A stretch of 58,802 bases of DNA from Candidatus Campbellbacteria bacterium. GTDB taxonomy: Bacteria; Patescibacteriota; Minisyncoccia; Phycocordibacterales; EsbW-18. The translations under genes were made by a program, and so were the position numbers. Where the stretch lies: the NCBI GenBank assembly GCA_045863475.1, contig BTUR01000005.1:1-58802 (forward strand). The letters are read 5' to 3'. Numbering within the stretch: the first letter of the stretch is position 1; every line of letters starts with the position of its first letter. A model generated the notes under the pieces. It saw nothing but the letters and a program-made list of their open reading frames with translations. It was not told the origin of the DNA and made no database searches. This document shows positions 14,007-23,249 of the stretch, one piece after another.

Positions 14007-14426
14007 ATGGCCAAAAAAGTACTTAAAACATTGAAATTGCAGATTCCCGGAGGCGCGGCAACGCCCGCACCGCCATTGGGTGCAACACTCGGTCAAGCCG
14101 GTGTGAACATCGGTGACTTCGTGAACAAATTCAACACGGCAACTGCGGATTCGCGCGGCGAAACGGTTTCGGTGCTGCTCACGGTTTTTGAAGACCGCAG
14201 CTACGACTTCGTACTCAAGAGCCCGCCAGCATCCTCACTGCTCGCAAAAGCGGCAGGTGTTCCGAAAGGTTCGGGCAACCCGCTCAAACCAGTCGGCAAG
14301 GTGACCAAAGCGCAGGTTCGCGAGATTGCGGAGCGCAAGATGGCAGACCTCAACGCGCACGACATCGAAGCGGCAATGAAAATCATCGAAGGAAGTGCTC
14401 GCTCAATGGGAATTGAAGTGAAATAA
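14007..14426 (+). CDS. rplK: 50S ribosomal protein L11
   Basis: [16 protein letters not shown] and [10 protein letters not shown] motifs. Confidence 0.97.
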
Positions 14427-14515: not shown

Positions 14516-15148
14516 ATGAATCTTCCGAATCTCAAGAACATCGTTGGGAAGGGGTTTAATCTCGACGACCGCTTCATCGAGAACTATGACGTGCTCGCCC
14601 AGGTGGTGGAGCTACTCAAGAAGTTCGGCAACCGCATTGTGCTCACCCAGGGTGTGTACGACATGTATCATGTCGGACACGGGAGGTACTTGCGCCAGGC
14701 GAAGTCCTTCGGCGACGTACTCGTTGTGGGTGTCGACACCGATGAGCTCACACGTTCGCGCAAGGGACCGAAGCGTCCGTTCGACACGTTCAAGGAACGG
14801 GTTGAGGTGCTCGCGGACAACCGCGCGGTCAACATCATCACGCCGCGTGAACTGAACGACGATCCGAATCGTCTCATCGAGGTAGTCCGTCCCGACATAC
14901 TGATCGTTTCGAAGACAACCTCGGATTTCTCCGAGGAGAAGCTTGCTGAGTGTCGCGCACTGTGCGGAGAGATCAAGCTCCTCGAAGCGCAGGCGGCGAC
15001 ATCAACGACGGCGAAGTTGCGTCGTATCATGGCTGACGGTGTCCAGGAGTTCGCGAAGAAGATCCACACGCTCACCGAGTCGTTCCTCGAAGAGCTCGAG
15101 GGTGCCGTGCAGGTGAAGGATGACCTCGAGAAGGAGGAACCGAAATGA
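14516..15148 (+). CDS. Cytidylyltransferase-like HUP-fold nucleotidyltransferase (TagD/RfaE-II-like)
   Basis: QGVYDMYHVGH (HxGH), LVVGVDTD, KGPKRP, RPDIL and STT motifs. Confidence 0.85.
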   Translation: MNLPNLKNIVGKGFNLDDRFIENYDVLAQVVELLKKFGNRIVLTQGVYDMYHVGHGRYLRQAKSFGDVLVVGVDTDELTRSRKGPKRPFDTFKERVEVLADNRAVNIITPRELNDDPNRLIEVVRPDILIVSKTTSDFSEEKLAECRALCGEIKLLEAQAATSTTAKLRRIMADGVQEFAKKIHTLTESFLEELEGAVQVKDDLEKEEPK

Positions 15149-15978
15149 CACCCGCGCTCGTCGCGTACATTCCGGTTATCCATCAGGGATACCTGGAGTT
15201 GTTCGCGAAGTATCACGACAAGTTGTACGTGCTAGGGGATGATGTGCTTTCGCTGGTGCCGTACATCGCACGCGATATGCGTGCGTGCAAGCCAGAAACA
15301 ATCGTGCAGATGGCACAGAGTCTCGGGTTCTTCCGGGGTGTGCAGTTGGCTGGCACGGAAACCCTCAAGACGCTTGCCAAGGCCCGCGAGAAGGTCGTCA
15401 TGCCCGACGAAGACATCAGTCGGGAAGTAGCGGAGCATTTCTTCAAGGAAGGTCAGGTCGAGTTTGCACAGCTGTTTCTACGGTGGCATCAGAAGAACGT
15501 TGCGTCAGAACAGCGTCCGCAGAACGACCGGAGTATCACGAAGGAAGCGCTCCATCAGCACTTCATCCAGCTTGCCTACGGAGAAGCAGGGAAGAGTCCT
15601 GACTGGTGGCGGCAGGTTGGTGCGTGTGCGGTTCGCGAAGGCAGGGTTGTCCTTGCCGCATGCAACACGCACTTCCCGTCGCAACAGACGGCGTACATCA
15701 TCGGTGATCCGCGCACACCATTCTCTCCTGGAGAGCGCATCGACGTGTCACTTTCGGGACACGCGGAGCGTCTTCTCATTGGCGAGGCAGCTGCGCGCGG
15801 TATCCGTCTACGGGATTGCGACCTCTACGTGACGACGTTCCCGTGCCCGGGATGCGCAATCCAGGTTGCCGTTGCGGGTTTCCGGCGCATCTTCTACTGC
15901 GAAGGGTATTCGCTTGCGGGTGCCGACGAGATTCTCAGAGCCCGTGGCGTGGAACTCGTTCGCGTCGAGATGACCTAA
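15145..15978 (+). CDS. dCMP-deaminase-family Zn deaminase with an extra N-terminal domain
   Basis: SPDWWRQVGA, HAE and TTFPCPGC motifs. ATGA overlap with the upstream gene. Confidence 0.85.
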   Translation: MTPALVAYIPVIHQGYLELFAKYHDKLYVLGDDVLSLVPYIARDMRACKPETIVQMAQSLGFFRGVQLAGTETLKTLAKAREKVVMPDEDISREVAEHFFKEGQVEFAQLFLRWHQKNVASEQRPQNDRSITKEALHQHFIQLAYGEAGKSPDWWRQVGACAVREGRVVLAACNTHFPSQQTAYIIGDPRTPFSPGERIDVSLSGHAERLLIGEAAARGIRLRDCDLYVTTFPCPGCAIQVAVAGFRRIFYCEGYSLAGADEILRARGVELVRVEMT

Positions 15979-16047
15979 TCCGGTTCTTTTATGAAAATTG
16001 CCCCGACGCGCAGCTGCGTGTCGGGGCAAGATTTTTTTTCAGGAGAC

Positions 16048-16512
16048 CTACGAACGAGAACCGGCCCACATCGCAACTTGCATCGGTCTGCCGCTTGCGT
16101 CGTCCACCTTCGGGACGATGAGTTGCGCATGCAGGTGACGGACAGTTGCACCGGAGAGGGCGGGGTCGCCGAAACGCATGCTAAACATGCCGCCGTTTTC
16201 CGCGAAGTACACGTTCGTCCAGACGAGCAATGACCAGAGATCATGCCACTCTTCCTCGGTGATTTCGTAGAGGTGTTCTGCGTGTCGCTTCAAGATGACG
16301 AGCAGGTGTACGTCGGTGTTCTGATACGGCCACTGATTCTTCGTGAGAACCCACGAACCGTTTTCCTCCAGCACCGGTTCTTTATGGTATCGCTCCAGGT
16401 GCTCGGGACAGAACGGGCAGACACCGGCTTGAACGATACGATCCATGACAGTTCGTTGCTCGTCTTCCCGCGCGTGCGAGAGCTCGACGTACGTCTTCGG
16501 TTTCTCTTCCAT
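16048..16512 (-). CDS. HIT-family nucleotide hydrolase
   Basis: CPFC, NQWPY, HLLVI and SGATVRHLHAQ motifs. Confidence 0.85.
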   Translation of the reverse strand: MEEKPKTYVELSHAREDEQRTVMDRIVQAGVCPFCPEHLERYHKEPVLEENGSWVLTKNQWPYQNTDVHLLVILKRHAEHLYEITEEEWHDLWSLLVWTNVYFAENGGMFSMRFGDPALSGATVRHLHAQLIVPKVDDASGRPMQVAMWAGSRS

Positions 16513-16521
16513 GAGCTCTCC

Positions 16522-17394
16522 TCAGGTGGGTGTCGGAATCGTCATCGCCGGATGCGGATTGTACTCCGAGAGGGTGAAGTGTTCGGGACGGAAGTCGAAG
16601 ATGTCCTTCACGCTCGGATTCAGGCTGAGCTTCGGAAAGGGCATCGGCTTGCGTTCGAGGAGCTTCTCCACGCACGGAATCTGCTCCTCGTAGATGTGCG
16701 CGTCGGAAATGACGTGCACGAGCTCGTGCATCGTGTAGCCGATTACCTGTGCCACCATCATGCCGAACGCGGCGTATTGCGCGATGTTGAACACGACACC
16801 GACGGGAACATCCCCGCTACGCTGGTAATGAAAGATGTCGAGTTCTTTCGTCTCCGGGTACGCGTGGATGTGAATGTCACCGTGGCACGGTGCCACGACG
16901 ACACGCCGGGCATTCGCGGGTCCGGGGACCGCATACTGCGGAATCCAGTTGGTGATGCGCAGCGTCCGCAAGTGCGGATACTTCTTGAGAAGCTCGATGA
17001 CGTTGTGCACCTGGTTGACCGGCGGGCCCTCACTGGTCGGGAACCGTGTCCATGCGGCGCCGTACGAGCCGGGTCCGAGGTCACCCTCGGGAAGTCCGAA
17101 GATCTTGCACTGCTCCTTTGTCACCCAACGCTTCCACCATTTGCAGCCCCACGCAGAGAGTTGCTCGTGCGTCTGAGCACCGTGGAGAAACGCGATGTGC
17201 TCGGCGAGCGCTCCGCGTAGCATGTTGCCGGAGAGGTCGCGCTCGGTGATGAGCGGAAAGCCGTTTGAGAGCGGGTACCGGAGTGTTCTTCCGACGAGCT
17301 TGAGTGCGTAGCCACCCTGGATGGGGTGGACGCGTCGTCCTGTCGTCAGGATCCGTTCCAGCAGTTCGTGGTACTGCCAATCGGGAATTCTCAT
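16522..17394 (-). CDS. thyA: Thymidylate synthase family protein (divergent ThyA)
   Basis: GFPLIT, DLGP.SYG..W, catalytic PCH, YQRSGD...G..FN and DAHIY motifs. Confidence 0.88.
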   Translation of the reverse strand: MRIPDWQYHELLERILTTGRRVHPIQGGYALKLVGRTLRYPLSNGFPLITERDLSGNMLRGALAEHIAFLHGAQTHEQLSAWGCKWWKRWVTKEQCKIFGLPEGDLGPGSYGAAWTRFPTSEGPPVNQVHNVIELLKKYPHLRTLRITNWIPQYAVPGPANARRVVVAPCHGDIHIHAYPETKELDIFHYQRSGDVPVGVVFNIAQYAAFGMMVAQVIGYTMHELVHVISDAHIYEEQIPCVEKLLERKPMPFPKLSLNPSVKDIFDFRPEHFTLSEYNPHPAMTIPTPT

Positions 17395-17494
17395 TATATG
17401 TCTCCTGTAAATGTTCGGTCTGCGGCAATACTACGTGCGCAGGTGTGCTGAGTCAACCATGCGGAAAACGCACTTTTTGTTGTAGGATGTGGGT

Positions 17495-19177
17495 ATGCAG
17501 GATGTAAAAAAGGATATAGAAAAAGCCGTAAAGGATACATGCGCGGAGTTCGGGTTTCCTGAAGCGAATTTTGTGGTGGAACGGCCCGCTGACATGTCGC
17601 ACGGCGACTACGCAACGAACGTGGCTCTTGCACTTTCCAAACAACTCGGGAAAAATCCTCGTGATATCGCGCAGGAACTCGCGCAAAAACTCTCAGAAAG
17701 GAAAACTCCCAGTATTGAAGCCATTGAAACCGCAGGAGCTGGGTTCATTAACTTCCGTCTCTCGCGTGACTATTTTGCGCAAACGCTGAAAAACATTCTT
17801 GCTGACGAAAAGAGTTTTGGAAAAAACGACGCACTTGCCGGCAAGACCGTGATGGTTGAGTACACGCAACCCAACCCGTTCAAACCGTTTCATATCGGGC
17901 ACCTCATGAGCAACACTATTGGTGAGGCGCTCACGCGTATTTTTGAGAGCTCCGGTGCAAACGTCATTCGCGCGAACTATCAGGGAGATGTGGGATTGCA
18001 CGTTGCGAAAGCACTCTGGGGAATGATGAAAAAAGGAGTTGCACCTGATGACATTCCTGGAATCGGTGAGGCGTACGCGTATGGGCACGAAATGTACGAA
18101 ACAAACGAGGCTGCCGCTCGCGAAATCGTTGATCTGAACAAAAAGGTGTATGCGCATGATCAAGAGGTTGAGGAGACATATAAAAAGGGACGAACGGCAA
18201 CATTGGATGCGTTTGAGAAAATTTACGCACTGCTCGGTACAACATTTGACGAGTACTTTTTTGAAAGCGAGGTGTGGGAGAAGGGGACGGCGCTTGTTGA
18301 AGAAGGGCTACAAAAAAATATTTTTGAAAAAAGTGACGGTGCGATTATTTTCCCCGGAGAAAAACACGGTTTACACACGCGTGTTTTTATAACGAAAGAG
18401 GGTGTGCCGACGTACGAGGCAAAAGAATTAGGATTGGCATTTCTTAAGACAGAACGCTGTAATTTTGATGTCTCACTGACTATCACCGCAGTTGAACAGG
18501 AGCAGTACTTCAACGTGGTGTTTAAGGCGCTTGAGCTGCTGCACCCGGAGTTTGCAGGGAAGTTTCAACATGCGCACCACGGCATGATGGTATTGCCGTC
18601 AGGAAAAATGTCATCACGAACCGGAAACGTTATCACCGGCGAGTCGCTCATTGCCGACATGATCGCGCGCGCAAAAGAGAAGGTGTCAGAGCGCGGAGTG
18701 TCTGATGCGGACAAGATTGCACAGGACGTCGCAGTTGGCGCCATTAAGTACATGGTGCTCAAACAAAACCTCGGAAAAAATATCGTCTTTGATGCCGAGA
18801 AGTCGCTGTCGTTTGAGGGTGATTCGGGTCCGTATCTCCAGTACACGTATACGCGTGCGAATTCTATTTTGGAAAAAGCACGTGCAGAAGGCATTGCACC
18901 GTCAACTGAAAAAGAGGTGGCGATAAGTGACCTGGAGCGGCTGTGCGAGCGTTTTCCTGAAGTCGTGCGCGGAGCGTTGGAAGGGCGCGCGCCAAGTGAC
19001 ATCGTACAGTACCTCATCTCGCTGTCGTCGGAATTCAACGCATGGTATGCGACGGGAAGAATTGTGGACGCACAGGATGCAGAATCTCCGTACAAAGTGG
19101 CGCTGACTGCGGCGGTTGCGGCGATTCTTACAAGCGGTTTGCAGATGACGGGTATCCCGGCGCCCTCAAGAATGTAG
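17495..19177 (+). CDS. argS: Arginine--tRNA ligase
   Basis: HGDYATNVA, AGAGFINF, PN..KPFHIGH, KMSSRTG and GDSGPYLQY motifs. Confidence 0.96.
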   Translation: MQDVKKDIEKAVKDTCAEFGFPEANFVVERPADMSHGDYATNVALALSKQLGKNPRDIAQELAQKLSERKTPSIEAIETAGAGFINFRLSRDYFAQTLKNILADEKSFGKNDALAGKTVMVEYTQPNPFKPFHIGHLMSNTIGEALTRIFESSGANVIRANYQGDVGLHVAKALWGMMKKGVAPDDIPGIGEAYAYGHEMYETNEAAAREIVDLNKKVYAHDQEVEETYKKGRTATLDAFEKIYALLGTTFDEYFFESEVWEKGTALVEEGLQKNIFEKSDGAIIFPGEKHGLHTRVFITKEGVPTYEAKELGLAFLKTERCNFDVSLTITAVEQEQYFNVVFKALELLHPEFAGKFQHAHHGMMVLPSGKMSSRTGNVITGESLIADMIARAKEKVSERGVSDADKIAQDVAVGAIKYMVLKQNLGKNIVFDAEKSLSFEGDSGPYLQYTYTRANSILEKARAEGIAPSTEKEVAISDLERLCERFPEVVRGALEGRAPSDIVQYLISLSSEFNAWYATGRIVDAQDAESPYKVALTAAVAAILTSGLQMTGIPAPSRM

Positions 19178-19808: not shown

Positions 19809-22800
19809 ATGGATGAACTGCAGAAAAGCGACATAAGCTTGCGGGAAGAGGAAATACTGAAAACCTGGAAGGAGAAGGGTATTTTCCAAAAAACGCTCGC
19901 AAAAAGCTCCCCGAAGGGAGAGTTTGTTTTCTATGAAGGACCGCCGACGGCAAATGCGCGCCCCGGTATTCACCACCTCATTTCCCGCGCTTTCAAAGAC
20001 GTTATTCCTCGATACAAGACGATGCGCGGTTTTCACGTTCGCCGAAAAGCCGGCTGGGATACGCACGGGCTTCCCGTTGAGATTGCGGTTGAGAAATCAC
20101 TCGGTCTCACGTCAAAGAAACAAATAGAAGAGTACGGTGTGGCGAAGTTCAACGAGCAGTGCAAGCAGGACGTTTGGAAATATATTAACGAGTGGCAGGA
20201 ATTCACCGAGCGTATCGGCTACTGGGTGGATCTTGATGACGCGTACATCACGTACTACCCCTCATATATAGAGTCGCTCTGGAATATCATCGCGCACGTG
20301 AATCGTCGCGGGCTGCTCTACAAGGATTACAAGGTGGTGCCGTGGTGCCCGCGGTGCGGAACTCCTCTCTCGTCGCACGAGCTCGCGCAGGGATACGAAG
20401 ACGTGAAAGATATTTCGGTGTACGTGAAGTTTAAGGTGGTCGGAGAGGGAAACACATATCTGCTTGCATGGACAACAACGCCATGGACGCTTCCGGGCAA
20501 TGTCGGACTTGCTGTCGGTGAAGATGTCTCGTACGTGAAAGTGGCCGTTGGCGACGAGGTACTCTGGCTCGCAAAAGCACGACTCTCTGTTTTGGAGGGG
20601 GAGTACAAAATTCTCGAAGAAGTTTCCGGCGCGAAACTCGTAGGAAAAACATACGAACCGCTGTATCCGTTTACCGCTGAGATGATAACCGGCGCGGAGA
20701 AGGAGAAGATGAAAAATGCGTACAAAGTCTATGCGGCTGACTTCGTGACGACGGAAGATGGCACCGGTGTGGTGCACACGGCGGTTATGTACGGACAGGA
20801 GGACTTTGACCTGGGACAAAAAGTCGGACTGCCGAAGCACCATCTCGTGGGCGAAGACGGAACGTTCCTTCCGGGCACGGGAATTTTTGCCGGGCGGTTT
20901 GTGCGCGACGAAGATGTCGCGGTGGACGTCATCAAAGATCTCGCCGGCCGCAATTTACTGCTTAAGAAAGAAAAGTATTTGCACTCGTACCCGCACTGCT
21001 GGCGCTGTAAGACGCCGCTTATCTACTACGCGCGCGATTCGTGGTACATCCAGATGTCGAAGCTTCGTGACGACCTCGTTCGGGAGAATAAAAAAATCAA
21101 CTGGGTACCGGAGCACATCCGCGAAGGACGCTTCGGTGAATGGGTGCGCGAAGTGAAGGACTGGGCAATTTCGCGCGATCGCTATTGGGGAACACCCTTG
21201 CCCGCGTGGCAGTGTGCGTGCGGGCACCGCGAGGTTGTTGGTTCTATTTCGGAGCTGAAGAAACGCATCATCTCGCGCGGCAACACGTACACGTTTGTAC
21301 GGCATGGAGAGGCGCAGAATAACGTGAGGAATATTTCAAGTTCTGATGCAACGGCGCCGTTCCATCTTACCGAGAAAGGAAGAACTGACATCCAACGCGT
21401 CGGCAAAAAACTTGCGAGAAAAAATATCTCAACAATCTACGCATCACCGTTCGTTCGTACGCAGGAAACCGCGGAGATAATCGCTGATGCACTGGGGAAG
21501 AAGAAGACCGATATTGTCACAGACGCACGACTTGGTGATTACGACTTCGGCACATTCAGCGGGGGTTCATATAATGACTTTCTCGCGCATGAAACGGAAC
21601 ACTTCAAGGTGTACACAGATAAAGCACCAGGAGGAGAAAGTTATGCCGATGCGCGCCGCAGATTTGCCGAGTTTCTCTACGATGTCGACCAAAAACATGA
21701 AGGAGAACACATCGTTGTTGTTTCGCACGGCATCTCACTTGAAGTTGTTCCGCCGGTTGTAGAAGGCATGGACGACAGGCACGCAAAACAGTTCATAGAC
21801 GACATTGTTACAAATCCGGGTGATACATTGACGTTCCAGTTTGTGCCATTGCCGCACAACCACAACTTTGAAATTGATTTGCACAAACCGTATATTGATG
21901 AGGTGCAGCTCGCGTGTCCGTCGTGCAAAAAGGTGATGAAACGCACGCCGGAAGTTATGGATGTGTGGTTTGACTCAGGGGCGATGCCGTTTGCACAGGA
22001 CCACTATCCGTTTGAGGGCGGCACGCATTTTTGGAACAGACAAAAACTCGCATATCCCGCCCAATACATTTCAGAAGCAATTGACCAGACGCGCGGATGG
22101 TTCTACACACTCTTGGCGGTCGGCGTACTCATGGAGAAGGGAAGCCCGTTTGAGAACGTCGTGTGCCTCAGCCACATCCTCGACAGCCAGGGTAAGAAGA
22201 TGAGCAAGAGTCTCGGCAATACCATCAATCCGTGGGAGATGATTGCAAAATACGGCGTGGACGTCATCCGCTTTTGGATGTTCTCGGTCAACCAGCCGGG
22301 CGACACGAAGAATTTTGATGAAAAGACCGTGGATGAGGTGAATAAAAAAGTATTCAACATTCTGCGTAACGTCGTGTCGTTCTATGCGCTGCACAAAGAC
22401 GGCGAGCACGCAAAGCCAAACGAGAGTGAGCACGTGCTTGACCGGTGGATTCTCGCGCGTCTTGACGAACTTGTTGCGCAGATGACGCAGGAGCTGGATC
22501 TCTACCACACGTTTGAACCGACGCGCGCGCTGAAAGATTTCGTCAGCGACCTCTCAACATGGTACATTCGCCGCTCAAGAGACCGGTTCCGCGATGGGGG
22601 AGACGATGCCATGCACGCGCTCGCGACAACACGGTACGTACTCCTGACACTTTCAAAACTGTTCGCGCCGTTTGCGCCGTTTTTTGCCGAAGAGATGTAT
22701 GGTGCCGCAAGTGGGGAGAAAGAAAGTGTGCACCTGGAAGAGTGGCCGAAAGAGTTGGGGACGAGGAACAGGGAACAGATTTTGGAGGAGATGGAAGAAG

Positions 22801-23249
22801 CACGCGACGTTGTGTCCAAAGCGCTTGAAGCACGCTCAGCCGCACTCATCAAAGTGCGCCAGCCGCTTGCATCCCTGACGCTGTCTCCTGCGCACATAAA
22901 ACTTGCGGGCAAAGAAGAGATACTCGCGGTTATCGCCGACGAGGTGAATGTGAAGGAGGTGCGCTTCTCCGACGGAACAGGACTCGATGTGGCGCTTGAT
23001 ACCGCAATTACGCCGGAACTTCAGAAGGAAGGAGACGTGCGTGAACTTATCCGTGCGATACAGGATTTCAGGAAAGAATCAGGATTGAAATCATCAGACG
23101 CGCCGAAGTTGCACGTTACAACCGACGAGAAGGGCAGTGCACTCATCAACGAATCAAAAGAGGAACTCAAAAAAGCAACGAACCTCTCGAGTATCTCGGC
23201 TGTTGTCGGGGAAACTGAAGGACAACAGTTTCGTTTCGAACTGCATTAA
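19809..23249 (+). CDS. ileS: Isoleucine--tRNA ligase (type 2) with an inserted histidine-phosphatase domain
   Basis: FYEGPPTAN, GWDTHGLPVE, WTTTPWTLPGN, DWAISR.RYWG, DQTRGWF and KMSKS motifs. The insert carries RHG...SHG. Confidence 0.95.
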   Translation: MDELQKSDISLREEEILKTWKEKGIFQKTLAKSSPKGEFVFYEGPPTANARPGIHHLISRAFKDVIPRYKTMRGFHVRRKAGWDTHGLPVEIAVEKSLGLTSKKQIEEYGVAKFNEQCKQDVWKYINEWQEFTERIGYWVDLDDAYITYYPSYIESLWNIIAHVNRRGLLYKDYKVVPWCPRCGTPLSSHELAQGYEDVKDISVYVKFKVVGEGNTYLLAWTTTPWTLPGNVGLAVGEDVSYVKVAVGDEVLWLAKARLSVLEGEYKILEEVSGAKLVGKTYEPLYPFTAEMITGAEKEKMKNAYKVYAADFVTTEDGTGVVHTAVMYGQEDFDLGQKVGLPKHHLVGEDGTFLPGTGIFAGRFVRDEDVAVDVIKDLAGRNLLLKKEKYLHSYPHCWRCKTPLIYYARDSWYIQMSKLRDDLVRENKKINWVPEHIREGRFGEWVREVKDWAISRDRYWGTPLPAWQCACGHREVVGSISELKKRIISRGNTYTFVRHGEAQNNVRNISSSDATAPFHLTEKGRTDIQRVGKKLARKNISTIYASPFVRTQETAEIIADALGKKKTDIVTDARLGDYDFGTFSGGSYNDFLAHETEHFKVYTDKAPGGESYADARRRFAEFLYDVDQKHEGEHIVVVSHGISLEVVPPVVEGMDDRHAKQFIDDIVTNPGDTLTFQFVPLPHNHNFEIDLHKPYIDEVQLACPSCKKVMKRTPEVMDVWFDSGAMPFAQDHYPFEGGTHFWNRQKLAYPAQYISEAIDQTRGWFYTLLAVGVLMEKGSPFENVVCLSHILDSQGKKMSKSLGNTINPWEMIAKYGVDVIRFWMFSVNQPGDTKNFDEKTVDEVNKKVFNILRNVVSFYALHKDGEHAKPNESEHVLDRWILARLDELVAQMTQELDLYHTFEPTRALKDFVSDLSTWYIRRSRDRFRDGGDDAMHALATTRYVLLTLSKLFAPFAPFFAEEMYGAASGEKESVHLEEWPKELGTRNREQILEEMEEARDVVSKALEARSAALIKVRQPLASLTLSPAHIKLAGKEEILAVIADEVNVKEVRFSDGTGLDVALDTAITPELQKEGDVRELIRAIQDFRKESGLKSSDAPKLHVTTDEKGSALINESKEELKKATNLSSISAVVGETEGQQFRFELH

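Follow-up and report, generated by a model that had tools for sequence, protein, structure and literature searches.

What does a set of four genes, two of them for pyrimidine enzymes and two for a nucleotidyltransferase and a HIT protein, do between the ribosomal gene rplK and argS? The question is raised by the window analysed here, a stretch of 58,802 nucleotides of Candidatus Campbellbacteria bacterium (contig BTUR01000005.1). To our knowledge, no textbook route leads from dC or dU nucleotides to dTTP without free dUMP, free dTMP and a P-loop thymidylate kinase. The rplK–argS interval holds four intact genes, for NT (the nucleotidyltransferase), a deaminase fusion, HIT and ThyA:

14007–14426, plus strand: rplK (ribosomal protein L11), upstream flank (TIGR01632, 175.7 bits; cut-off 141.85)
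14516–15148, plus strand: NT, a cytidylyltransferase-like (HIGH-motif) nucleotidyltransferase of 210 aa (PF01467, 43.1 bits; cut-off 21)
15145–15978, plus strand: deaminase fusion of 277 aa (PF00383 over residues 137–252 only)
15145–15534, plus strand: N-terminal domain of the deaminase protein, of cytidylyltransferase fold by structure matches to its model, with HxGY replacing HxGH
15535–15978, plus strand: dCMP-deaminase-type zinc deaminase domain (PF00383, 55 bits)
15998–16029, no strand assigned: hairpin of 14 pairs (10 G-C), A-rich before and with a T-run after, a probable bidirectional terminator (consensus scan)
16048–16512, minus strand: HIT-superfamily protein of 154 aa with CPFC and HLHAQ motifs (weak matches to DUF4931_N, 24.7 bits, DcpS_C, 20.7 bits, and HIT, PF01230, 19.2 bits against a cut-off of 21.5)
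16522–17394, minus strand: ThyA variant of 290 aa (PF00303, 214.9 bits, cut-off 24.3; TIGR03284, 167.1 bits, cut-off 108.35)
17428–17456, minus strand: weak promoter-like site ahead of thyA (agrees with the consensus at 9 of 12 positions; a single site, where shuffled controls average 1.1)
17489–19177, plus strand: argS, downstream flank (TIGR00456, 389 bits; cut-off 261.65)

An earlier note on this DNA had described such a four-gene island, and all four reading frames lie at the coordinates it gave. They form two convergent pairs, NT with the deaminase fusion on the plus strand and thyA with HIT on the minus strand, and encode small proteins that look soluble. The 69-bp gap between the pairs is occupied by the 14-pair hairpin with its T-run, probably a bidirectional terminator, a call made by a consensus scan that yielded no more such sites across the region than shuffled controls did. 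The NT and deaminase genes overlap by ATGA, with GAAGGAGG upstream. The nusG, rplK and argS flanks each exceed their NCBIfam cut-offs, and the G+C content of the island is 58.4%, against 51.9% for the genome.

The earlier note had made its readings depend on the genes co-occurring elsewhere, and they do. Of 40 relatives, 8 have the four genes side by side in this order and at this site, again with the rplK flank, and the same genes in the same order were found at the 64 further loci examined, a co-occurrence far beyond chance. Across 73 loci the fusion gene is accompanied by NT in 73, where the two adjoin, HIT in 70, ThyA in 68, folA in 51, glyA in 30, dut in 26 and tmk in 9. HIT shares its strand with thyA and folA, and DHFR–HIT fusion ORFs occur at three of the 73 loci. 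NT → deaminase and thyA → (folA) → HIT are two operons, inherited together at the nusG–rplK/argS site. This rplK–argS position holds in every relative examined, and alternative thymidylate modules occupy the same site. Among 301 genomes sampled from the order, 72 carry the fusion gene, and it occurs in 439 species genomes; in the genus the module is patchily distributed (3 of 14). As a lead only, a DHFR–HIT architecture is shared by the 64 members of an Atlas cluster.

NT belongs to PF01467 both by score and by its HVGH motif, and HxGH is kept in 72 of 73 orthologues. Its nearest solved sequences are ethanolamine-phosphate cytidylyltransferase and HldC, and its top NCBIfam model is RfaE domain II (TIGR02199). 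We rejected RfaE domain II/HldC heptose-1-phosphate adenylyltransferase as an identity for NT, as its 101.3 bits miss the equivalog cut-off of 181.5. No heptose-pathway genes were detected at the locus with our own gene models used for the neighbourhood scan.

The deaminase protein carries a second domain. Pfam gave no match to this N-terminal part; modelled alone with AF2 (pLDDT 85.9), it has 3glv, 2b7l, 5x3d, 3do8 and 5x9q as its top VIA matches (Z 9.1–9.6 over 103–117 residues) and 5x3d as its best Foldseek match (E = 4.9e-4), and by this model it is a GCT-type cytidylyltransferase fold. HxGY is kept in 65 of 73 fusion orthologues, and a profile comparison of the domain with NT was not significant (probability 2.8%). 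The remainder of the protein has both the fold and the zinc motifs of a dCMP deaminase. Its Foldseek matches are the dCMP deaminases 2hvw, 1vq2 and 4p9e (E = 1e-9 to 1e-10), and T4 Cd (1vq2) is its best solved sequence match (E = 1.2e-9); H206, E208 and PCPxC are invariant across the nine deaminase sequences aligned, and HxE plus PCxxC occurs in 71 of 73 fusions. Single-domain dCMP deaminases span about 140–190 aa, whereas this protein has 277 aa, including the extra 130-aa cytidylyltransferase-fold domain. One 469-aa protein, from a single cluster, joins NT, the N-terminal domain and the deaminase. An Atlas cluster of 52 members pairs CTP_transf_like with dCMP_cyt_deam, which we record as a lead only.

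The HIT protein has the motif HLHAQL. DcpS_C is matched by 16 of 18 orthologues and HIT (PF01230) by 15 (E up to 0.01), and a profile built from these 18 retrieves Hint-type HIT proteins and structures (best E = 4.4e-7). The first two histidines of the motif are invariant. The third residue is variable (of 72 sequences, 44 have H, 23 have Q and 5 have N) and so cannot be used to tell a hydrolase from a phosphorylase. As far as is known, enzymes of the HIT family always attack a substituted nucleoside 5′-phosphate. JGI labels two of the homologues ‘ATP adenylyltransferase’.

ThyA exceeds both curated cut-offs of its family and, at 31% identity to E. coli ThyA, is fairly called divergent, as it had been in the earlier note. 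It retains C146, H147, E58, W80, Y94, R166, S167, D169, N177, H207 and Y209 (E. coli numbering); C146, H147, R166, D169, E58, W80 and Y94 are kept in all 68 cassette ThyA proteins and N177 in 65. These residues are catalytic or specify the base. Two arginines of the four-arginine cage around the dUMP phosphate (R21, R166, R126′ and R127′) are gone from the window protein, in which Ile takes the place of Arg21 and Thr that of Arg127; elsewhere the phosphate-binding arginines of ThyA are considered universal. Arg21 is retained in none of the 68 cassette proteins and Arg127 is lost from 64, with Thr at this position in 63, while R166 is retained in 68 and R126 in 56. Arg21 is kept in 40 of 47 ThyA proteins from Tmk-positive genomes without the cassette. 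The cassette proteins fall, for 64 of the 68, into one long-branched, separate clade (support 1.0), and four branch among canonical ThyA, likewise without Arg21.

The only ThyA and the only PF00383 (CDA-family) gene of the window genome both lie in the module, and all 72 cassette genomes have a ThyA-family match, mostly just one. We read the module as a housekeeping thymidine-nucleotide set of a Patescibacteria (Parcubacteria/Paceibacteria-type) cell, not a foreign or defence island. This goes against a second proposal of the earlier note, that the genes form an anti-phage nucleotide-depletion or base-modification system like the defensive dCTP deaminases, to which we now give almost no credence. 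The patchiness within the genus would suit such a system, as would a weak match of HIT to ThsC (E = 0.001) and the hits of the deaminase to NF041025 (48.3 bits against a cut-off of 400, residues 206–265 only) and to the PADLOC dCTPase model PDLC02373 (52 bits, residues 204–267). We rejected an anti-phage dCTP deaminase identity, as there is no full-length model match and these hits cover no more than some 60 residues at the zinc motif. The two resemble each other in having a nucleotide-binding domain ahead of a dCMP-deaminase-type domain and in local PCxxC similarity. However, the anti-phage enzymes (DCD/AvcD type) have an N-terminal P-loop kinase-like domain, whereas the cassette domain is modelled as a cytidylyltransferase fold, and no P-loop motif was seen in its alignment. 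The fixed site in each relative examined, shared with alternative thymidylate modules, and the company of folA, glyA and dut are likewise those of a housekeeping set, and the 32 pattern matches in viral contigs yielded no confirmed relative.

The product might instead be a modified pyrimidine (a 5-hydroxymethyl or otherwise substituted base, or a nucleotide-sugar-like compound) rather than thymidine nucleotides. ThyA-family enzymes include hydroxymethylases, the cassette ThyA clade is long-branched and separate, and we know of no textbook dTMP route in which NT or HIT takes part. Several observations make this improbable, however. The uracil-type residue N177 is kept in 65 of 68 proteins, and the presence of folA with 51 of 73 cassettes, in three of them fused to HIT, fits reductive methylation, which yields dihydrofolate. 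As ThyA is the only one in the window genome, the cell needs the cassette enzyme for dT. Glycosyltransferase or DNA-modification genes were not seen in the loci either, a weak point that covers eight models of our own.

Thymidylate kinase is rare alongside the cassette. Tmk (PF02223) scores above cut-off in none of nine cassette genomes and in 24 of 32 other relatives; order-wide, a strong match occurs in 11 of 72 cassette genomes against 160 of 229 others. Because the genomes are mutually related, a Fisher test makes the association look stronger than it is. In the window genome PF02223 has no match anywhere, our own Tmk profile found adenylate kinase only, and no cassette protein matches PF02223. 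NDK is present. Tmk loss is not specific to the cassette: of the 92 cassette-free genomes that have a canonical ThyA, 67 have a strong Tmk match and 25 share the lack, and many of these 25 carry a module of CYTH-like, DCD and ThyA proteins. Other nucleotide enzymes are also sparse. Gmk is found in 11 of 41 genomes and Cmk in 7 of 41, and no Gmk, Cmk or PyrH is recognisable in the window genome; since these kinases are likewise missing or patchy, a general NMP kinase or nucleotide uptake may serve dTMP too. Nor does the window genome have a recognisable DHFR (PF00186) or SHMT, although folA adjoins 51 of 73 cassettes.

The chemistry may instead be conventional: the deaminase and ThyA would use free dCMP and dUMP, and an unrecognised kinase would phosphorylate dTMP. 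NT and HIT would then be accessories at the edge of the pathway that might supply dCMP (dCTP → dCDP-conjugate → dCMP) or convert dTMP onward, and the NT-like domain would sense nucleotides allosterically, taking over from the dCTP/dTTP site found in classical dCMP deaminases. We regard this as a serious possibility, though on balance a doubtful one. ThyA passes the NCBIfam equivalog cut-off with its catalytic residues intact, the deaminase domain is nearest to true dCMP deaminases, and dut adjoins 26 of 73 cassettes and tmk 9 of 73. The 25 Tmk-poor canonical-ThyA genomes, the general patchiness of NMP kinases and the small AAA_18/AAA_33 kinases present in the window genome all fit it as well. 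Yet three such small kinases recur in only 0, 1 and 0 of five other cassette genomes. Conventional chemistry also leaves unexplained why Arg21 is lost in all 68 cassette proteins, including the four among canonical ThyA, why the deaminase is coupled or fused to NT rather than to HIT, and why Tmk is so much rarer in cassette genomes (11 of 72) than in the others with canonical ThyA (67 of 92).

The explanation that we favour, tentatively and at somewhat less than an even chance, is a housekeeping dT route in which the pyrimidine nucleotide would bear a phosphate-linked handle. NT would attach the handle to a deoxycytidine nucleotide through its phosphate, either by moving NMP from an NTP onto dCMP, as in NMN adenylyltransferase, or by taking dCMP from dCTP and joining it to a small phospho-alcohol, like the closest relatives of NT. 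The fused NT-like domain may grip the handle or dock onto NT while the deaminase domain turns C into U. The ThyA variant, its phosphate pocket opened and less positive, would methylate the conjugate, with DHFR recycling the folate, and HIT would strip the handle to release dTMP, or dTDP in the case of phosphorolysis. Release of dTDP would explain the usual absence of thymidylate kinase. A stricter form, which we judge unlikely, keeps dT synthesis on the carrier throughout; HIT would set dTDP free if it works by phosphorolysis and dTTP if by pyrophosphorolysis, and free dUMP, free dTMP and thymidylate kinase would all be bypassed.

The handle route resembles the nucleotidylated intermediate that the earlier note had suggested, and that suggestion survives in part. 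Counting for it, indirectly, are the conservation of the four genes as a unit, the coupling and fusion of the deaminase to NT and of HIT to ThyA and DHFR, the loss of Arg21 and Arg127, and the rarity of Tmk. On the other side, the genes for dut and tmk beside some cassettes, together with the strong Tmk matches in 11 of 72 genomes, would suit a pathway through free dUMP and free dTMP, at least in the genomes concerned. Caution is also called for by the alternative module of CYTH-like, DCD and ThyA proteins, which has neither NT nor HIT: its ThyA has lost Arg21 in 12 of 20 cases and Arg127 in 13 of 20.

Set beside the canonical dTMP branch (ComEB-type dCMP deaminase, ThyA, FolA, Tmk and Dut), the cassette has the CDA-type deaminase, ThyA and DHFR families in common, plays the same role as sole dT source and, in the same order of bacteria, takes the nusG–rplK/argS site that the canonical set occupies elsewhere. 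It differs in its additions (NT, one or two HIT genes and, on the deaminase, a domain of NT fold), in a ThyA that lacks Arg21 and usually Arg127, and in a Tmk that is usually not found. A second likeness is to the pairs that make and break NDP-sugars or NDP-alcohols, in which a GCT, ECT or RfaE-II nucleotidyltransferase is matched by a HIT enzyme of the GalT or phosphorylase branch, as in the Leloir pathway, ADP-glucose phosphorylase and Ap4A phosphorylase. NT is nearest to ECT, HldC and GCT, the window HIT motif is HxHxQ, and the two share the proposed logic, in which a phosphoanhydride conjugate is built and its NMP is then passed to water or phosphate. In contrast to these pairs, the cassette has no sugar-pathway genes, its partners are a deaminase and ThyA, and its HIT profile is nearest to Hint-type hydrolases rather than GalT. 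The deoxynucleotide genes of phage T4 (cd, td, frd, dNMP kinase and dCTPase) are also a dedicated dC-to-dT set, possibly forming a complex, but the cassette has NT and HIT in place of a dNMP kinase or dCTPase homologue, and no relative was found in viral contigs.

The module is an alternative to the canonical set in a very large group of tiny, uncultured bacteria; it spans 439 species genomes and, in one sampled order, roughly one genome in four. Were the carrier idea wrong, three uncharacterised protein families (NT, the NT-like-domain deaminase and HIT) would still be tied to dT synthesis, and the module would point to the missing dTMP kinase of these organisms. Were it true, it would mean new central metabolism, a new class of ThyA substrate and an essential DNA precursor made by a new route.

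An ORF check of the window recovered all four frames of the pyrimidine-nucleotide island described in an earlier note (hereafter the cassette), each with the start and end it had been assigned:

Genes of the cassette
14516-15148, + strand: cytidylyltransferase-like nucleotidyltransferase (NT), 210 aa; PF01467 match of 43 bits; HVGH motif
15145-15978, + strand: deaminase fusion, 277 aa; dCMP/cytidine deaminase family match limited to residues 137-252
16048-16512, - strand: HIT-like protein, 154 aa; weak DUF4931_N, DcpS_C and HIT matches; motifs CPFC and HLHAQ
16522-17394, - strand: ThyA, 290 aa; PF00303 match of 215 bits; TIGR03284 match of 167 bits against a cut-off of 108

The cassette is flanked by nusG, rplK and argS. 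The NT and deaminase frames are joined by an ATGA overlap, with a GAAGGAGG box upstream, and the 69-bp gap between the two convergent pairs holds a 14-pair hairpin with A-rich and T-rich runs on its sides. Among curated models, NT matches RfaE domain II best; the score of 101 bits falls well short of the 181.5 cut-off. Island G+C is 58.4%, against 51.9% for the host genome (734 kb, 98% complete), whose only ThyA-family gene and only PF00383 gene both lie inside the island. A 325-aa open frame antisense to HIT and thyA (16243-17220, + strand) arises from the G+C richness of the coding strand and is no gene. Elsewhere in the window, an isoleucyl-tRNA synthetase gene (19809-23249, + strand; 1146 aa) carries an inserted histidine-phosphatase domain, a complete PF00300 match of 113 bits at residues 496-660, within the class I catalytic core.

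Conservation of the gene neighbourhood had been proposed as a check on the island, and the four genes do occur together elsewhere. Strong matches to NT, the fusion, HIT and cassette-type ThyA, sought in 40 relatives, coincide in eight genomes (G002, G005, G011, G019, G021, G030, G034 and G035), which include 3 of 14 same-genus genomes; adjacency, order, orientation and the nusG–rplK/argS site are identical in all eight. Profiles made from the first nine loci mapped 64 further ones, giving 73. NT adjoins the fusion gene at every one of these; HIT scores at least 100 bits at 70 (contig ends truncate two of the other three, and one reaches 99 bits), and ThyA exceeds 200 bits at 68, the remaining five being likewise truncated, split or weak. 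Genes accompanying the cassette at these loci are folA (51), glyA (30), dut (26), a second HIT gene (19) and tmk (9). Across the order, 72 of 301 sampled genomes contain the two-domain fusion gene, a count that takes in the window's own genome, the unpublished genome G264, one copy split over two frames (in G198) and one with an in-frame TAG (in G272). These two copies look damaged or mis-assembled, as do the thyA of G011, split into two overlapping frames (L050, 8645-9411), and the cassette-adjoining tmk of G051 and G087, which contains a stop codon.

Scanning a single genome of each species for the fusion motif gave 456 pattern matches, and 439 genomes were confirmed as encoding the fusion. 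Titles of related-locus records name Patescibacteria of the Parcubacteria/Paceibacteria type (Kaiserbacteria, Adlerbacteria, Liptonbacteria, Vogelbacteria, Nomurabacteria and Minisyncoccia); 'uncultured Candidatus Saccharibacteria' is a frequent but loose label among them, and a Gammaproteobacteria or Pseudomonadales label appears on 4 of the 80. Atlas protein clusters that resemble NT and HIT may also occur in Actinomycetota. In comparison with two loci of the window's genus (L048 and L049), the window ThyA is ~75% identical to that of G005 and ~46% to that of G002, whereas the window NT is 71% identical to that of G002 and ~42% to that of G005. The cassette exceeds its flanks in G+C by 6-10 points in this genus, against a mean of 2.4 over 69 loci. 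This mosaic relatedness and G+C excess suggests that cassette genes have been exchanged between lineages. A phage origin was rejected, as none of the 32 matches to the fusion motif among viral contigs was confirmed. The earlier note had also raised the idea of an anti-phage module acting through a modified base or nucleotide depletion; for a gene set fixed between rplK and argS in all eight relatives, we regard a defence role as highly improbable.

The deaminase domain of the fusion retains H206, E208 and PCPxC and aligns structurally with dCMP deaminases from S. mutans, T4 and a cyanophage (Foldseek E 1e-9 to 1e-10). Pfam gives no match for the N-terminal 130 residues. Predicted on its own, this N-domain reaches a pLDDT of 85.9, and the first-ranked structural matches of the predicted structure are GCT-type cytidylyltransferases (3glv, 2b7l, 5x3d, 3do8 and 5x9q in VIA, Z 9.1-9.6 over 103-117 residues; best Foldseek match 5x3d, E 4.9e-4). 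After its first strand, HxGY replaces the HxGH of the family in 65 of 73 sequences. Sequence does not establish homology to the neighbouring NT: profile–profile comparison aligns the motifs, yet with a probability of 2.8%, and the fold assignment alone stands. The N-domain profile matches 587 protein clusters at E <=0.001 among 1.84 billion representatives. Among the 150 matches listed, 107 are 254-309 aa long, as expected of the fusion architecture, 42 are shorter than 250 aa (fragments or stand-alone domains) and one, of 469 aa, combines NT, N-domain and deaminase in a single chain. A word-based protein search with the N-domain returned 12 matches, all nameless. Complex prediction for NT and the N-domain, run without controls, scored 0.00 and speaks neither for nor against contact.

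Aligned to E. coli ThyA from the K-12 record, the window ThyA retains C146, H147, E58, W80, Y94, R126, R166, S167, D169, N177, H207 and Y209; R21 is replaced by Ile and R127 by Thr. Arg is absent from position 21 in all 68 cassette ThyA proteins (Q 23, I 20, P 14, F 4, H 4, others 3), and position 127 holds Thr in 63, a single Ser and Arg in the remaining 4. One clade with support of 1.0 holds 64 of the 68; the four with Arg127 are placed among canonical ThyA (moderate support, 0.79-0.88), still without Arg21. Arg21 is retained in 40 of 47 ThyA proteins from cassette-free genomes with thymidylate kinase (Tmk, PF02223), a set that leans to the most canonical sequences because 40 of the 47 were picked from the top of a score list.

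Another way to read such a ThyA is as the maker of a modified base. The retained Asn177, the linkage to folA and the lack of any other ThyA in the genome all argue against this, and we think it very unlikely. Elsewhere in the order, lower-scoring ThyA-like genes occur in 31 genomes lacking the cassette. Three ThyA-family genes, in G013, G014 and G024 (L061 4050-4886, L062 3600-4436 and L060 3740-4633), have Asp at the Asn177 position, as in dCMP-specific relatives, and adjoin tmk, a dUTPase-like gene and folA; genes of this type may point to C5-modified cytosine.

Among 72 HIT proteins, CxFC is kept in 68, the first two motif histidines are kept and the third position is taken by H in 44 proteins, Q in 23 and N in 5. 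By profile, the family lies closest to HIT proteins of the Hint type (E 4.4e-7); JGI labels on homologues comprise two 'ATP adenylyltransferase' and one 'Ap4A HIT family hydrolase'. A GalT-like assignment, drawn from CPFC and HxHxQ, is weakened because Hint-type proteins share the CxxC and the third residue is mostly H. At three loci, DHFR and HIT form one ORF of 317-337 aa. Near a contig start in G209 (locus L226), a ThyA with Arg21 and Ala127 is directly followed by a cassette-type HIT gene, with neither NT nor a fusion gene in the 8.4 kb covered; this ThyA is a long-branched sister of the cassette ThyA clade.

Tmk scores above the PF02223 cut-off in none of the nine cassette genomes first compared but in 24 of the 32 other relatives, where tmk is frequently a neighbour of thyA, folA and dut. 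The difference extends across the order, although the Fisher test of cassette against Tmk overstates the association because it ignores genome relatedness.

Tmk matches in genomes of the order (strong, E <=1e-10)
Cassette (n = 72): strong 11, weak 9, none 52
No cassette (n = 229): strong 160, weak 14, none 55
No cassette, canonical ThyA (n = 92): strong 67, weak 4, none 21
No cassette, other ThyA-like genes (n = 31): strong 28, weak 1, none 2

In the window's genome, searches with E. coli Tmk, Cmk, Gmk and PyrH gave no match, and recognisable DHFR, SHMT and dUTPase were not found; besides ThyA, it encodes adenylate kinase, NDK and three small kinases of the AAA_18/AAA_33 type. These small P-loop kinases were rejected as a cassette-linked Tmk substitute, as their distribution does not follow that of the cassette (present in 0/5, 1/5 and 0/5 of five other cassette genomes); one of them is absent from five same-genus genomes without the cassette as well as from the five with it. 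dUTPase, which among close relatives scores above the cut-off in 1 of the 9 cassette genomes and 17 of the 32 without the cassette, was considered as a second missing enzyme and dropped because dut adjoins 26 of the 73 cassette loci across the order. NMP kinases are patchy beyond Tmk, with Gmk above the cut-off in 11 and Cmk in 7 of 41 genomes. The chemistry might be conventional, with NT and HIT merely feeding or draining the pathway, the NT-like domain serving as a regulatory sensor and some unrecognised kinase phosphorylating dTMP; this we judge to have about one chance in three.

A second Tmk-poor group comprises 25 genomes with canonical ThyA, no cassette and no strong Tmk match, which are not simply noise. 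In the 20 loci fetched from them (L214-L233), thyA again occupies the nusG–rplK/argS site, a CYTH-domain gene (PF01928) is present in 11 and a dCTP-deaminase-like gene (PF22769) in 9, and glyA and folA are also often nearby; the set amounts to a third kind of thymidylate locus. ThyA here has lost Arg21 in 12 of 20 and Arg127 in 13 of 20, usually showing H/F21, K126 and H127. With such losses in both sets, phosphate-site remodelling and Tmk loss are paired in two different modules, of which only the cassette contains NT and HIT.

The most economical reading of the cassette is the one the earlier note had put first, in which the pyrimidine is carried as a nucleotidylated intermediate, and we favour it tentatively, at somewhat under even odds. 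NT, from a family that makes phosphoanhydride conjugates, would put a handle onto the phosphate of a dC nucleotide; the deaminase and ThyA would act on the conjugate, and HIT would take the handle off. The phosphorylase branch of the HIT family uses phosphate as acceptor. Were phosphate the acceptor here, the product would be dTDP, which NDK would complete, making Tmk dispensable. Three observations point to a nucleotidylated intermediate: NT is joined to the deaminase by translational coupling and in some cases by fusion; HIT, from a family limited to substituted nucleoside 5'-phosphates, accompanies thyA and folA, in some loci as a DHFR fusion; and of the four arginines that grip the dianionic dUMP phosphate, ThyA is missing two.

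A literature search of article full texts turned up nothing describing this gene set. The families are known; the module, the NT-fold–deaminase architecture and the Arg21-less ThyA clade appear to be undescribed. That the cassette provides a genuinely new way of making dTDP or dTTP we consider unlikely, at something like one chance in four or five. The cassette itself is a conserved, chromosomal housekeeping module of thymidine-nucleotide metabolism, with its catalytic motifs intact.
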